IMG/VR virus record: IMGVR_UViG_2671180294_000008
Reading direction: 5' to 3' (one strand)
DNA length: 4,095 nucleotides
Source: a virus
Taxonomy: Duplodnaviria > Heunggongvirae > Uroviricota > Caudoviricetes
Shown piece by piece: positions 138 to 4,095 of the stretch. The notes under the pieces are model-generated. The model was given only the letters and a program-made list of their open reading frames with translations. It ran no database searches and was not told the DNA's origin. The translations under genes were made by a program, and so were the position numbers. Each line of letters begins with the position of its first letter. Within the stretch, counting starts at the first letter, position 1.

Positions 138-1529
138 ATGACAACACCAGTCTGGCGTAATGATGACCTGGAAGGCGCTGTCATTGGCGCATTCTTTCTG
201 CGTGGGGCAGATCATGAAGTGATGGATATTCTGATCACACTACCGGCGGACATTTTTTCTGTACGAGCGTATCGGGATATCTACACAGGCATCTGCAGAC
301 AGGCCCGTGTTTCAGGAGTGATTGACCCCGTGCTGTTGTGTAATGAGATGCCGGAACTTGCCCCGGTGATTACTGATACCGGGCGTAAAACCTGGGTGAA
401 GTCTTCACTGGAGCACTATGTTGCAGCGTTGCGGCGCAATGCCGCACTGCGCGATGCAGAAAAAACACTGAATGAGGCGCTGCAGAAATTACGTGATGCG
501 CATACCTGTGAAGCAGCTGAAGATGCCCTGAAGGATGCGCAGAACATGATGGTCACACTGTCGACAGGAAAGGGCGTCATTCAGCCGGTACATATTGATG
601 ATGTGCTTCCGGAAGTGGTTGAGCGTGTTGAATGCCGGAATCAGGGGCTGGAGAAATCCAGGACGTTGATGACCGGTATTGATGAACTGGACGCAAAAAC
701 AGGCGGTATGGAGCCCGGAGACCTGGTATTCATTGCCGCCCGTCCTTCGATGGGGAAAACCGAACTTGCGCTGGACATCATCGACAAGGTGACTGAGCAG
801 GGGCATGGTGTGCTTCTGTTCACCATGGAGATGGCGAACATCCAGATTGGTGAACGTATGGTGTCTGCGGCTGGAGGGATGCCAGTATCACGCCTGAAAT
901 CTGTGGCTCACTTTGAAGATGAAGACTGGGCGCGTTTCTCACAAGGGGTGGGGCGGATGACCGGGCGCAATATCTGGATGGTGGACCAGGCGAACCTGAC
1001 CATTGATGAGATATGCGCAACAACGAAACACCATCTGATTAAACATCCGGAAACGGCGCTGGTGGTGGTTGATTATCTCGGGCTGATAAAAACCCGAACC
1101 ACGGGGCGTCATGACCTTGCCGTGGGTGAAATCTCAAAGGGGCTTAAAGGCCTGGCAAAATCCGGTGGTTTTCCGTTGATTGCGCTGAGCCAGCTCTCCC
1201 GCGGTGTGGAGTCCAGACCCAATAAACGTCCCATGAACTCAGACCTGAAAAATTCCGGAGAAATAGAGGCGGATGCAGACATCATTCTGATGCTTTACAG
1301 GGATGAAGTGTACAACCCGGATACACAGGCTACAGGCATAGCAGAAATTAATATCACGAAACAACGTAACGGTTCTCTGGGGACGATTTACCGGCGTTTT
1401 TATAACGGACATTTTCTGCCTGTGGACCAGGAAAGCGCACAGGTTCTTTCCACCCCAATGCGGCAGCCCCAGCCGCGCAGATACAGCAATACACGTACCG
1501 ACAGCAGTAAGATGGAGCGTTTCTTTTGA
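138..1529 (+). CDS. DnaB-family replicative DNA helicase, phage-encoded (lambda P position / P22 gp12-like)
   Basis: Long ORF in frame 3. Translation carries DnaB signatures: N-terminal LEGAVIGAFF (cf. DnaB LEAEQSVLG), Walker A AARPSMGKT (nt 735-761), Walker B-like LVVVDYLGL, the H3 block ALSQLSRGVESRPNKRPMNSDLKNSGEIEADADIILMLYRDEVY, and GIAEINITKQRNGSLGTI. ATG at 138 chosen over the track's TTG at 117 because it forms an ATGA overlap with a frame-1 stop; the frame stays open to the window edge so the true start is not certain. Stop TGA 1527-1529. Confidence 0.9.
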   Translation: MTTPVWRNDDLEGAVIGAFFLRGADHEVMDILITLPADIFSVRAYRDIYTGICRQARVSGVIDPVLLCNEMPELAPVITDTGRKTWVKSSLEHYVAALRRNAALRDAEKTLNEALQKLRDAHTCEAAEDALKDAQNMMVTLSTGKGVIQPVHIDDVLPEVVERVECRNQGLEKSRTLMTGIDELDAKTGGMEPGDLVFIAARPSMGKTELALDIIDKVTEQGHGVLLFTMEMANIQIGERMVSAAGGMPVSRLKSVAHFEDEDWARFSQGVGRMTGRNIWMVDQANLTIDEICATTKHHLIKHPETALVVVDYLGLIKTRTTGRHDLAVGEISKGLKGLAKSGGFPLIALSQLSRGVESRPNKRPMNSDLKNSGEIEADADIILMLYRDEVYNPDTQATGIAEINITKQRNGSLGTIYRRFYNGHFLPVDQESAQVLSTPMRQPQPRRYSNTRTDSSKMERFF

Positions 1530-1700
1530 ACAACCAGACAATGACTTTTACCTCTGAACAATTGCGTAAACACGCGCAGGAAATGTTGCGACAGGCGGAA
1601 CAACTGGAAAAAACAGGTGTAACAAAAGATGCCATTCGTCGGGATATGGTGCCAGCGCTCAGGGAACTGATGCAGGCGAAACATCGCGCACAAAAAGCGG
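1467..1700 (+). repeat. Diverged direct repeat, copy A (helicase 3' tail plus 5' part of small gene), truncated by the N-run
   Basis: Aligns by eye with 1866-2098 at roughly 85-90% nucleotide identity; the block around the helicase stop and small-gene start (about 1503-1552 vs 1901-1950) is identical in both copies. Confidence 0.85.
1526..1700 (+). CDS. Small helical (coiled-coil-like) hypothetical protein, paralog A; partial, 3' end lost in N-run
   Basis: ORF begins at TTG 1526 with GGAG (1514-1517) 8 nt upstream; alternative ATG at 1541. The 58 resolved codons are 54/58 identical in amino acid to paralog B. The track's fusion to 1927 is an artifact of translating N as X. Confidence 0.55.
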
Positions 1701-1865
1701 NNNNNNNNNNNNNNNNNNNNNNNNNNNNNNNNNNNNNNNNNNNNNNNNNNNNNNNNNNNNNNNNNNNNNNNNNNNNNNNNNNNNNNNNNNNNNNNNNNNN
1801 NNNNNNNNNNNNNNNNNNNNNNNNNNNNNNNNNNNNNNNNNNNNNNNNNNNNNNNNNNNNNNNNN
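1701..1865. other. Run of 165 N (unresolved or masked sequence; assembly/scaffold gap)
   Basis: Directly visible: 165 consecutive n characters. Content and true length unknown. Confidence 0.95.
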
Positions 1866-2098
1866 GCAATCCGCGCAGATACAGTAATAAACGAACTGAC
1901 AGCAGTAAGATGGAGCGTTTCTTTTGAACAACCAGACAATGACTTTTACCCCTGAACAATTGCGTAAACACGCGCAGGAAATGCTGCGTCATGCTGAACA
2001 ACTCGAAAAAACGGGCATAACAAAAGACGCTATCCGTAAAGATATGGTACCCGCGCTTCGGGAACTGATGCAGGCGAAGCATCGCGCACAGAAAGCAG
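1866..2098 (+). repeat. Diverged direct repeat, copy B (helicase-tail-like remnant plus 5' part of small gene)
   Basis: 1866-1927 encodes ..NPRRYSNKRTDSSKMERFF-stop, matching the helicase C-terminus ..QPRRYSNTRTDSSKMERFF-stop at 1470-1529; it is followed by the same small-gene start context as copy A. Confidence 0.85.
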
Positions 2099-2181: not shown

Positions 2182-2552
2182 TGCGCCATGAGTTTATTTT
2201 ACCTTATCCGCCGACGGTGAATACTTACTGGCGACGTCGTGGCAGCACATATTTTGTATCAAAAGTTGGTGAGCGTTATCGCCGTGATGTGACGCTAATT
2301 GTTCGCCAGCAGCGGCTGAAATTAAACCTGTCCGGAAGGCTGGCGATAAAGATTATTGCAGAGCCACCGGATAAGCGCCGTCGTGACCTGGACAATATCC
2401 TGAAAGCACCACTGGATGCGCTGACGCATGCCGGACTACTCATAGACGACGAGCAGTTTGATGAAATCAATATTGTGCGCGGTCAGCTCGTTCCTGGTGG
2501 GCGACTGGGCGTGAAGATTTATGAAATCACAGGTGATAACGATGGCGCGTGA
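2181..2552 (+). CDS. rusA: RusA-family Holliday junction resolvase (crossover junction endodeoxyribonuclease)
   Basis: 123-aa product with RusA hallmarks: [15 protein letters not shown] (cf. E. coli RusA LPWPPSNNRYYRHNRG), [29 protein letters not shown] (acidic catalytic cluster, cf. [29 protein letters not shown]) and [16 protein letters not shown] at 2166-2170 sits 10 nt before ATG 2181. Position between the replication genes and Q is typical of lambdoid nin regions. Confidence 0.88.
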
Positions 2553-2928
2553 TATTCAGCAGGTTATGGAACGGTGGGGGGCTTGGGCTGCAAACACTCA
2601 TGAAGATGTATCCTGGGCGTCGATCGCTGCTGGTTTTAAAGGGTTAATTCCGTCGAAAGTGAAATCACGCCCTCAGTGTTCTGATGATGATGCAATGATA
2701 ATTTGTGGCTGTATGGCCCGGTTGAACAAGAAAAATCAGGATTTGCACGATTTGCTGGTGGATTATTACGTAGGTGGAATGACTTTTATGAGTCTGGCAC
2801 GGAAACATGGGTGTTCGGATACCTGTATTGGCAAGCGCCTGCAGAAAGCGGAAGGGGTTATTGATGGCATGTTGATGATGCTTGATATCCGGCTGGAGAT
2901 GGACAGATACGTAGAACGAATTATGTAG
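2542..2928 (+). CDS. Q-type late-gene antiterminator, compact about 128-aa Cys-rich family (resembles the short Q of E. coli cryptic prophages, e.g. QuuD-like)
   Basis: ORF ends 2928 immediately upstream of a promoter-like element, the canonical Q/pR' arrangement. Product [17 protein letters not shown]... contains C-x8-CGC and GCSDTC cysteine clusters (putative Zn site). ATG 2542 preferred over the track's 2521 because AGGTGA (2531-2536) lies 5 nt upstream; this gives an 11-nt overlap with the rusA stop. Family assignment is from memory of similar short prophage Q proteins, not a search. Confidence 0.72.
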
Positions 2929-2932
2929 GTGC

Positions 2933-2962
2933 TTGACCAGACACATTGTCCGGGGCTATATT
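2933..2962 (+). promoter_or_regulatory. Sigma70-type promoter, candidate late promoter pR' (Q-utilisation region)
   Basis: -35 TTGACC (2933-2938), 18-nt spacer, -10 TATATT (2957-2962), starting 5 nt after the Q stop codon. Predicted TSS about 2969. Confidence 0.5.
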
Positions 2963-3023
2963 CCTCACGCGCCAGCAAAATCTGGCGTCGGGATTGGAAC
3001 CCCGGATAGAGACCGCGACAGAC

Positions 3024-3048
3024 ACACGCCGCGAGCGTGTTTTTTATT
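3024..3048 (+). terminator. Intrinsic terminator, candidate tR' (ends a roughly 75-80 nt pR' leader RNA)
   Basis: Stem ACACGC (3024-3029) / GCGTGT (3035-3040), 5-nt loop CGCGA, followed by TTTTTATT (3041-3048). Confidence 0.5.
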
Positions 3049-3173
3049 GTCGTATGCACGCGCACATCTGAATTATGGTGGGGCGCATGGGGGAGCTGAA
3101 AAGCTCGCCGGTCGGTTTCCCGGTAGTTCCAACCCTGTGCGTCTCACCACCCGATGATTGGAACCTGACGGTG

Positions 3174-3202
3174 TTGACAGTTTCAGGTTTGCAGTTTACA
3201 TT
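3174..3202 (+). promoter_or_regulatory. Sigma70-like promoter candidate upstream of the ORF6N gene
   Basis: Perfect -35 TTGACA (3174-3179), 17-nt spacer, -10 TACATT (3197-3202; 4/6 to consensus, with A2 and T6 conserved). Confidence 0.4.
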
Positions 3203-3237
3203 TCCCCGCGGTGCTCAAAACACCTCGAAAGCGGTAT

Positions 3238-3265
3238 CCACACCCGATAGCCATGTGGTTTTTTT
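3238..3265 (+). terminator. Weak hairpin plus T7 tract (possible attenuator or leader terminator)
   Basis: CCACA (3238-3242) / TGTGG (3254-3258) with an 11-nt loop, followed by TTTTTTT (3259-3265). Stem is short and the loop large, so terminator activity is uncertain. Confidence 0.3.
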
Positions 3266-3408
3266 GTGTCCAGAATTCTTGGTTTATGACCGGGTGTGCG
3301 GCTAATACAATACCAGCAATGGAAATACGCCCGCCGACTTTCGACGGTTTTGAGCGCCCGGTCACCCTCTCAAAAGGGGTAAATCAAAATATTCGAAAGG
3401 ACATGTCT

Positions 3409-3972
3409 ATGAATCGCACGTCTATTGAAAAACTCCCGTCACTTACGCATAACCATCTTCCTGTCATGACAACAGAGCTGCTGGCTGATTTGTACGGAAC
3501 AGAGCGCCAGCGTTTGACAAACAATTTCAATCGAAACAAAGAACGGTTTATAGAAGGTAAACATTTTTTCCTGATAGAAGGTGATGCGTTACGAGAGTTG
3601 AAGAACGAAAACTCTTTAAGAGTTTCTGTGAAAATTGCCCGTAACGTTCGCTCCCTCATCCTCTGGACAGAACGTGGCGCAGCCCGTCACGCCAAAATGC
3701 TCGAAACCGATCAGGCGTGGGAAGTGTTCGAAAAACTGGAAGACTGTTATTTCAACCAGAAACAGCCACCAGCGGCACAAAACACATCTATCGAAAATGA
3801 TGGATGCGCATTACTGAGCCACTTCGATAAACACGGTCAGGTTGAGTTCACGGAAAAGGTACCCGCCGATGCGATGGTATGTACTCTGGAACGGTTTAAA
3901 TTTTATCTGGAGCAACACGGGTGGATCGTTGCCCGTAAAGAGCAACTGGTGGAGCGGTTGATGCGGTTTTAA
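3409..3972 (+). CDS. ORF6N-domain (KilA-N-related, antirepressor-like) protein with uncharacterised C-terminal half; moron in the Q-to-lysis position
   Basis: ATG 3409 has AAGGA (3397-3401) 7 nt upstream; the track's start at 3211 and the in-frame ATG 3403 lack a usable SD. The N-terminal roughly 95 aa show the ORF6N pattern LADLYG..(x)..NFNRNKERFIEGKHFF.L.G..L..(x)..LWTERGA..AKML..D.AW. Stop TAA 3970-3972. Domain call is by eye. Confidence 0.68.
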   Translation: MNRTSIEKLPSLTHNHLPVMTTELLADLYGTERQRLTNNFNRNKERFIEGKHFFLIEGDALRELKNENSLRVSVKIARNVRSLILWTERGAARHAKMLETDQAWEVFEKLEDCYFNQKQPPAAQNTSIENDGCALLSHFDKHGQVEFTEKVPADAMVCTLERFKFYLEQHGWIVARKEQLVERLMRF

Positions 3973-4047
3973 AAATTTTTTCCGAAAACTTTACGATCGT
4001 AAAAAGTTGAATATCCTGTTAAGAGTGGTTACTACGCCACACAGCTT

Positions 4048-4073
4048 AAACCCGCCGATGAGCGGGTTTTTTT
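4048..4073 (+). terminator. Strong intrinsic (Rho-independent) terminator
   Basis: AAA-CCCGC (4048-4055) / GCGGG (4062-4066) GC stem with 6-nt loop CGATGA, followed by T7 (4067-4073); 76 nt downstream of the ORF6N stop. Confidence 0.75.
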
Positions 4074-4095
4074 ATACCTGAAAAACGGCACAGGA

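Follow-up and report, generated by a model that had tools for sequence, protein, structure and literature searches.

Short direct and inverted repeats lie in the 480-nt gap that separates the gene of a Q-family antiterminator (2521-2928) from that of an ORF6N-domain protein (3409-3972) in a lambdoid prophage segment of 4,095 nucleotides (IMG/VR record IMGVR_UViG_2671180294_000008; this whole stretch is hereafter called the window). Our analyses lead us to conclude, with high confidence, that the copies of TTGGAAC and of the surrounding 10-mer GATTGGAACC constitute the three 'a' elements (a1, a' and a2) of a P1-type C4 antisense RNA control module. RNA-RNA recognition of this kind is already known from P1/P7 and from IsrK of Gifsy-1, and the repeats themselves are mostly ordinary, being textbook a1/a'/a2 sites of the C4 antisense system. 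What this system decides is the production of the antirepressor and, hence, the silence of the prophage. The coordinates of the individual features are compiled in Table 1.

The repeated motif and the C4 antisense RNA

The repeats were found exactly where the initial annotation had placed them: the 10-mer at 2992-3001 and 3156-3165, and its TTGGAAC core in direct orientation at 2994-3000 and 3158-3164 and inverted at 3126-3132. Regarding the suspicion that TTGGAAC was more frequent than expected by chance, three copies in the whole window were reached by 8 out of 200 shuffles. The arrangement of the copies was a stronger statistic than their number. Within the 480-nt intergenic region, three 7-mers (TTGGAAC, CTCAAAA and TCGAAAG) formed direct-inverted-direct triples, compared with a shuffle mean of 0.19, and three such triples were reached in 0.5% of 2000 shuffles.

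An Rfam scan matched the surroundings of the inverted copy (3071-3154) to the C4 antisense RNA (RF01695) with 71.0 bits (gathering threshold 45), covering model positions 1-87 of 87 with zero non-canonical pairs. The minimum free energy fold of this RNA was the same as the Rfam structure, and an alignment of 50 homologues, P1 included, revealed compensatory changes at 20 of the 26 C4 pairs. Two further models exceeded their gathering thresholds upstream of C4, namely isrK (RF01394) at 2969-3045 (77.5 bits, gathering 50) and c4-a1b1 at 2956-3008 (50.1 bits, gathering 46.7). The features expected around isrK were all present: a promoter-like site at 2933-2962, a Rho-independent terminator at 3024-3045 (terminator scan) and a Phage_antitermQ gene upstream. 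The predicted start of the transcript from this promoter, ~2969, is also the position at which the isrK model begins. In the IsrK-like RNA, a1 is displayed by the hairpin CGGG(2989-2992)-ATTGGAAC-CCCG(3001-3004). It pairs with a' over 7 bp, and the extended a1/a' duplex reached -16.6 kcal/mol, compared with -8.8 kcal/mol for a'/a2. These energies were calculated with RNAduplex on loop and junction segments; full-length runs gave unrealistic end-to-end duplexes. The C4 RNA also carries sequence features of the RNase P type, with U3076 preceding G3077-GU and an ACC tail at 3149-3151, as in the P1 C4 RNA with its 5' GGU and 3' ACC. Since the P1 annotation shows the same arrangement, we assigned the repeated motif to an a1/a'/a2 set. 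As for the second antisense element, the hairpin-2 loop of C4, in which b' is located, pairs in relatives with the Shine-Dalgarno region of the downstream gene. The gene 3' of the C4 region encodes an ORF6N-domain product, and in relatives, genes annotated as 'antirepressor' come after compact C4 modules.

The IsrK-like RNA presents another conserved loop, CAAAAU, in its hairpin 1 (2969-2988). The loop sequence GCAAAAUC (2975-2982) has been kept in lambdoid relatives and in P1 (GCAAAUUC); it shows no complementarity to C4 and could possibly be an A-rich Hfq or ribonuclease site. It was also considered as 'a1' and rejected, as only a weak 5-bp complement to it exists in C4 and the P1 annotation gives the TTGGAAC-type loop as a1.

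Further support came from covariation. Related loci were retrieved from IMG/VR by a pattern in which the neighbouring hairpin was fixed and the a1 loop was left free, yielding 104 non-redundant loci with 25 different loops. In 100 of the 104 loci, the C4 junction, 130-240 nt downstream, contained the perfect reverse complement of the 7-nt a1 core, and an exact direct copy (a2) followed 29-36 nt after a' in 96. When cores from other loci were used as control, the complement was found in 28 out of 2483 cases (~1%) and the direct copy in 10 out of 2483 (0.4%). Regarding the b elements, b' scored far above the foreign-loop controls against both b1 and b2, and the b1 scores of 98 loci (including L037, identical to the window) clearly exceeded the control. 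In relatives, b2 sits on the Shine-Dalgarno of the next gene, and b1 is located a few bases past the a1 hairpin. The comparison of related prophages proposed in the initial annotation thus showed that the triple pattern was kept as a unit in ~100 loci, and its loss in orthologous loci was not seen. Because the a and b sequences vary freely yet in concert (25 a-types in 104 loci), they behave like immunity specificities. Such specificities could predict cross-talk among co-resident prophages, including Stx phages, where the module is common.

The C4 module also has the appearance of a travelling cassette. It was observed in the nin region (ninE-roi), near the early-left region of Stx phages and after Q (PhiR12_1, L001; PA2, L002; and L124). 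Each time, the cassette precedes a different antirepressor-type gene, and GenBank coding sequence (CDS) calls for a 'hypothetical protein' often overlay its RNA.

These results bear on what the repeats had been taken for. The general part of the regulatory reading in the initial annotation held, in that the repeats do serve as recognition sites, are not random and are linked to the adjacent ORF6N gene, while its three concrete proposals (protein operators, tRNA remnants and recombination scars) failed. That the 10-mers and the inverted core are operator sites bound by the ORF6N protein, Q or a repressor is very improbable. The repeats do stand between a regulator gene and the gene of a DNA-binding-type protein, and P1 has a C1 operator at its c4 promoter; however, across the 104 loci the copies covaried as an exact complement and an identical copy through 25 sequence variants, and the sites correspond to an RNA loop, an RNA junction and an RNA 3' flank. 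As the three sites change as complement and copy while the RNA structure stays fixed, a DNA-binding protein cannot explain them, which argues for RNA-RNA pairing. In addition, the genes that follow C4 modules come from unrelated families ('antirepressor', 'regulatory protein' and ORF6N), as do those that follow the sRNA-Xcc1 modules described below.

Degenerate tRNA genes, recombination scars or chance are hardly credible as the origin of the repeats. ARAGORN predicted 0 tRNA genes and no tRNA model matched the region at E<=10, in contrast to the score of the C4 model. tRNA genes are not far away in E. coli SCU-125, where a tRNA-Ile and two tRNA-Arg genes lie ~1.3 kb downstream of the ORF6N gene. 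The tRNA-like look of the region may be explained by C4 itself, which mimics a tRNA acceptor stem for RNase P according to the part of PMC5320573 that cites Hartmann 1995. Concerning scars, the 10-mer is not one, but a real module junction lies just 3' of its second copy, at ~3166-3183. Finally, repeated 8-mers are common by chance, whereas the triple is rare in shuffles and is conserved as a unit in ~100 loci, and chance is the best account solely for the duplication of the 8-mer CACCCGAT.

This 8-mer was confirmed at 3148-3155 and 3241-3248, the 15-nt contexts of its copies being 80% alike. It was also correct that the second copy lies within a hairpin, CCACA(3238-3242)/UGUGG(3254-3258), where it occupies part of the 5' arm and part of the 11-nt loop ahead of a U7 tract (3259-3265). 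The shuffle mean for repeated 8-mers in 480 nt was 2.0, and the CACCCGAT duplication alone is compatible with chance, though each copy falls in a conserved element. At the first copy, CACCACC is conserved in relatives and the bases after it are variable; the second extends into the conserved loop of the hairpin that terminates the Xcc1 leader. As the two copies are not at equivalent module positions, we regard the duplication as probably coincidental.

The sRNA-Xcc1 module upstream of the ORF6N gene

The other two triples, CTCAAAA and TCGAAAG, belong to a second RNA. The small RNA (sRNA) family sRNA-Xcc1 (Rfam RF02221) matched with 77.4 bits (gathering 53) over model positions 1-87 of 87. A predicted leader RNA upstream of it ends in a terminator composed of the hairpin 3238-3258 and U7, and forms with Xcc1 3332-3356 a near-continuous duplex of -29.8 kcal/mol. 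The duplex of the ribosome binding site (RBS) region 3383-3400 with Xcc1 was weaker (-14.0 kcal/mol). Since the leader pairs with Xcc1 more strongly than the RBS does, the 'strong decoy, weaker target' relation of C4 recurs here. A promoter-like site precedes the leader (Table 1), and comparable -35/-10 boxes occur at the same distance in stand-alone Xcc1 modules. The Xcc1 RNA has an acceptor-like closing stem and a 3' ACC tail, and it may be excised by RNase P, as proposed for C4.

Concerted variation was also observed for this module. E. coli EC12 carries CTACTGA, TCAGTAG and TCAGTAG at the same three places, so that the window and EC12 differ concertedly at all three TCGAAAG/TCAGTAG positions. 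The IMG/VR sample comprised 56 structured, non-redundant Xcc1 loci. For either antisense element, 39 of them showed a 'target, antisense, target' triple with a length of 6 nt or more, compared with 4.7% and 3.4% in the controls; one element had 31 different cores and the other 14. The Rfam identity of Xcc1 was found in 17 out of 17 loci checked, and the downstream target abuts or overlaps the Shine-Dalgarno. The genes after Xcc1 in 48 loci encode P22_AR, KilA-N, Bro-N, Rha, AntA or ORF6N domains. On these grounds, we favour, if with some reserve, the reading that sRNA-Xcc1 is the antisense core of a second widespread C4-like 'immunity' module family, which would silence phage antirepressor-type genes translationally. 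A cis-regulatory reading of Xcc1 was not found in the literature searched.

The two module families may also be related in their parts. The loop motif CCCG[AT][CT]AG was present 5' of Xcc1 in 35 out of 56 loci, followed by a T-run in 32, and the P1 c4 leader has a similar CCGAUA loop together with the sequence TTTTTGTGTCC. The end of the P1 c4 leader (L243 3280-3320) reads CCGCAGAUUUCCGAUAUUGCGG and then UAUUUUUGUGUCC, and the Xcc1-leader terminator of the window (3236-3272) reads CCACACCCGAUAGCCAUGUGG and then UUUUUUUGUGUCC, which is closer to the P1 leader end than is the window's IsrK terminator. This resemblance hints that the C4 and Xcc1 modules share ancestry or exchange parts. As the C4 covariance model gave no match in the Xcc1 region even at E<=10, homology of the two RNAs is not demonstrated, only a shared design. 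Separately, an Xcc1-bearing viral contig from IMG/VR (L149 2202-2349) showed three CRISPR-DR4 matches ~140 nt from the end of the gene after Xcc1, which may represent a phage-borne mini CRISPR array.

The module junction and a proposed mechanism

The window deviates from ordinary C4 modules just after a2, and BLAST matches to Stx and lambdoid phages stop at ~3183. In the compact form present in E. coli SCU-125, the a2 hairpin is followed by b2 (ATCAACCA) and GAGG and then by the ATG of the ORF6N gene, while the window and E. coli EC12 contain ~200 extra bases in place of this b2/RBS segment. No b2 was found within 68 nt past a2: the best duplex with b' in this interval scored 4.5, the lowest of 98 loci, 87 of which scored at least 7.5. 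The pairing of b' with the ORF6N RBS amounted to -5.3 kcal/mol. The tandem order, C4 and then Xcc1, was present in 17 IMG/VR contigs and in EC12, in at least 4 sequence variants. Between the two modules, the cross-talk detected was at most weak split helices (between a' and the Xcc1 targets, and between Xcc1 elements and the targets of C4).

A displaced b2 was considered at GAAACCGA (3703-3710) inside the ORF6N CDS, which is a perfect 8-nt complement of the b' loop, and was rejected because it did not covary. Two other tandem loci matched, but L250 and L252 (with an L006-type b') differed in a wobble base and L256 had no such site, and the complementarity of GAAACCGA is probably due to chance.

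The two modules were also observed in series in the Stx2a phage P13374 of E. coli O104:H4 (L125, 1060-2880), there with one gene each. In P13374, isrK and C4 stand before ORF29 ('regulatory protein'), whose annotated CDS start overlaps C4, and an Xcc1 copy stands before antB2/ORF26, part of the Xcc1 region being annotated as the small CDS antB2. This Stx phage of the outbreak strain would thus have two successive genes under antisense guard.

Transcription, RNase P processing, repression and decoy action at the locus can be modelled on P1 and Gifsy-1. Transcripts from the promoter at 2933-2962 would begin at ~2969, and most would stop at the 3024-3045 terminator to give the 77-nt IsrK-like RNA. 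Read-through transcripts would include C4 (~3077-3151), exposing b' in the hairpin-2 loop and a' in the junction. In ordinary members of the family, a' would pair with a2 and b' with b2 over the Shine-Dalgarno of the antirepressor gene, so that translation would be blocked. The short leader with a1 and b1 would bind C4 more strongly than a2 does, acting as a decoy that relieves the block. This role of the leader is suggested by the P1 model of repression by C4, with occlusion of the RBS by b', taken together with the finding in Gifsy-1 that short IsrK supplied in trans activates antirepressor translation (PMC4825925). At the present locus, a complete Xcc1 module, with promoter-like site, putative decoy leader, Xcc1, target hairpin and Shine-Dalgarno target, is joined right after a2. 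Because the b2/RBS part is absent and an Xcc1 target lies on the ORF6N Shine-Dalgarno, it is most likely Xcc1, and not C4, that keeps the ORF6N gene from being translated. A C4 module without its own RBS target, stacked on an Xcc1 module, could amount to a two-layer RNA control of one antirepressor gene behind Q.

Several observations weigh against this interpretation. The defining RBS target of C4, b2, is missing here, and C4 may be a relic, have its target in trans on another prophage or influence read-through. That the leaders serve as decoys is deduced by analogy, and a1 and b1 of P1 are annotated merely as 'putative' targets. The authors of the Gifsy-1 study explain the activation by a structural switch and translation of a small open reading frame (ORF), not by titration of C4 (PMC4825925). 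The promoters and terminators from which transcription of the locus is predicted are consensus matches only, and the stem of the T7 hairpin is weak, with 5 bp. As for Xcc1, its covariation test was based on k-mers and not on a curated alignment, and ~30% of the loci have no triple of at least 6 nt.

The explanation given for Gifsy-1 could complement the C4 decoy reading. In an IsrK-type switch, cis pairing of a1 with a' in the long transcript, corresponding to 'structure A' of Gifsy-1, would silence a small ORF equivalent to orf45 (ATG 3075 or 3087) and an antirepressor gene coupled to it, and short IsrK in trans would open the structure, so that the repeats would serve mainly an mRNA switch and not a diffusible C4 repressor. 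Compensatory mutagenesis and the in-trans activation speak for it in Gifsy-1, and the window has kept both the AUGs at +107 and +119 and the a1:a' helix. However, the ORF that begins at the conserved ATGG ranges from 3 to 416 aa in 93 loci, and where it stops varies relative to the downstream gene. In the window, the ORF from 3075 comprises 76 aa without a Pfam match and stops at 3305, inside Xcc1 and ~100 nt before the ORF6N start; no orf45-like translational coupling to the antirepressor gene was found at this locus. The reading frame of the small ORF thus lacks conservation, and what has been preserved in this region is the RNA, with covariation. A stable processed RNA, STnc1160, was detected at this position by the Gifsy-1 authors themselves. 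Altogether, we consider a switch of this type a possible but rather doubtful contribution.

A role outside translation is made plausible by the absence of b2. In a termination control like that of P4, C4 would bind a1 and a2 on the nascent transcript and cause premature termination, thereby governing read-through into the Xcc1/ORF6N unit. The layout (target, processed antisense RNA, second target) is the same, and the Gifsy-1 authors called IsrK a structural homologue of P4 seqA. Nevertheless, this option is improbable: the terminator scan found no terminator-like element after a2, and b' clearly covers a Shine-Dalgarno in most relatives. Moreover, co-expression of the C4 region in Gifsy-1 strengthened the growth arrest mediated by IsrK, an effect at odds with a simple termination factor that IsrK antagonises.

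Genomic context and comparison with known systems

Table 1. Position, strand and main attributes of the features identified in the window
Feature	Position	Strand	Attributes
Q-family antiterminator gene	2521-2928	+	Pfam Phage_antitermQ, 176 bits; likely start codon 2544
Sigma-70-like promoter TTGACC-18-TATATT	2933-2962	+	Consensus scan, 10/12 matches; likely drives the IsrK-like/C4 transcript
Short IsrK-like leader RNA, 77 nt	2969-3045	+	Rfam isrK and c4-a1b1; fold
a1 (TTGGAAC)	2994-3000	+	Displayed in hairpin loop; first copy of the repeated motif (10-mer 2992-3001)
b1 (GAGACCG)	3009-3015	+	7 bp with the C4 hairpin-2 loop CGGUUUC, one G-U
C4 antisense RNA	3077-3151	+	Rfam; outer stem 3076-3092/3133-3149, hairpin 1 3093-3106, hairpin 2 3107-3124
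b' (CGGUUUC)	3113-3119	+	Within the hairpin-2 loop (3112-3119) of C4
a' (GUUCCAA), inverted copy	3126-3132	+	Single-stranded C4 junction between hairpin 2 and closing stem
First CACCCGAT copy	3148-3155	+	Last two pairs of the C4 closing stem, ACC tail and variable linker to a2
a2 (TTGGAAC), second direct copy	3158-3164	+	10-mer 3156-3165; begins 7 nt past the C4 ACC tail
Module junction	3166-3183		End of similarity to ordinary C4 modules; Xcc1 module replaces the b2/RBS segment
Second sigma-70-like promoter TTGACA-17-TACATT	3174-3202	+	Consensus scan; 7 nt 5' of the first Xcc1-leader hairpin
Xcc1 leader RNA (putative), 57 nt	3209-3265	+	Hairpin GGUG-CUCAAAA-CACC 3210-3224, UCGAAAG 3225-3231, terminator
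sRNA-Xcc1	3288-3371	+	Antisense elements CUUUCGA (3338-3344, hairpin 2) and UUUUGAG (3348-3354, junction)
Hairpin ACCCU-CUCAAAA-GGGGU	3364-3380	+	Loop 3369-3375 provides the Xcc1 junction element with its downstream target
UCGAAAG	3393-3399	+	Downstream target of the Xcc1 hairpin-2 loop; overlaps the ORF6N Shine-Dalgarno AAGGA 3397-3401
ORF6N-domain gene, antirepressor type	3409-3972	+	Pfam ORF6N, 74 bits; alternative ATG 3403

In addition to the Q-family antiterminator and the ORF6N-domain protein, the window encodes a DnaB-type helicase and RusA, all of them confirmed by Pfam. Several IMG/VR contigs (L037, L115, L232 and others) carry an identical copy of the region, whose best match among complete E. 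coli genomes is EC12 (88.9%). A strong intrinsic terminator is present 3' of the ORF6N gene (window 4002-4075), with a stem at 4048-4069 and a T-run; weak Trp_leader and Leu_leader Rfam matches at the same place correspond to just that terminator. Further upstream, the 3' end of the helicase gene and the next small ORF (85 aa, 1924-2181) are present twice with ~85-90% identity (window 1476-2080), and the two copies flank a run of 165 N bases (1701-1865). This arrangement could stem from a scaffold gap at which two related copies of a prophage were joined or from a tandem duplication that was masked. In the first case, the left half of the window may not adjoin the right half in nature.

The layout of the satellite phage P4, in which the CI RNA acts with seqA and seqC, is comparable to that of the C4 module in that a processed antisense RNA lies between upstream and downstream complementary sites on one transcript. 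It differs in that P4 uses premature transcription termination, and the window has no terminator after a2.

sRNA-Xcc1 is known from Xanthomonas campestris, where it has been described as integron-borne and trans-acting, and the copy in the window matches the full length of the model. It was reportedly characterised as a trans-acting sRNA by Chen in 2011. The papers searched present Xcc1 as a trans-acting, virulence-linked sRNA with predicted distant targets, and one of them notes a copy upstream of an ORF6N gene in APSE phages. By contrast, in the window and in 56 viral loci Xcc1 looks cis-encoded: targets flank it, and one of these lies at the RBS of the gene that follows. If true, our reading of Xcc1 would reassign a widely annotated 'virulence sRNA' family to the local control of phage induction.

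Comparison with the immI region of P1/P7 (Citron and Schuster 1990; NC_005856) revealed the same order of a1, b1, terminator-like hairpin, C4 and a2. In both, a' is in the junction and b' in the hairpin-2 loop, the C4 model and structure fit, and the regulated genes are of the antirepressor class. In P1, the a1 sequence TTGACAG lies in the hairpin CCGG-TTTTGACAG-CCTG, a' is CUGUCAA, a2 begins 3 nt past the C4 3' end, and the b' loop CACUAAC pairs with b2 at the icd RBS. The window differs from P1 in having no b2 at the RBS, no icd-like leader gene and no identified C1-type operator at the promoter. P1 is also a plasmid prophage, whereas the module of the window follows a lambdoid Q gene and is fused to an sRNA-Xcc1 module adjoining the gene.

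The Gifsy-1 region of Salmonella (Hershko-Shalev 2016, PMC4825925) is arranged in the same order, with antQ directly upstream of isrK, followed by orf45 (STnc1160) and anrP. With +1 set at 2969, the Gifsy-1 landmarks A107 and AUG119-121 correspond to ATG 3075 and ATG 3087 of the window. The a1:a' helix of Gifsy-1 has been proven by compensatory mutations at G28-C162 and G31-C159 (PMC4825925); the former pair is G2996-C3130 in the window and the latter is A2999-U3127, a natural compensatory change. This correspondence of landmarks indicates that the Gifsy-1 'helix b-I' is the a1:a' pairing and that STnc1160 sits where C4 is. In contrast to Gifsy-1, the ORF of the window is 76 aa long (not 45) and is not next to the antirepressor start, and ~240 nt (promoter-like site, leader and Xcc1) are inserted. 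The downstream protein of the window has an ORF6N domain, and the Rfam scan gave no isrJ match downstream of its gene. Altogether, the IsrK pairing of Gifsy-1 and the a-site pairing of P1 C4 constitute the same interaction, which joins two literatures that a 2025 review keeps separate.

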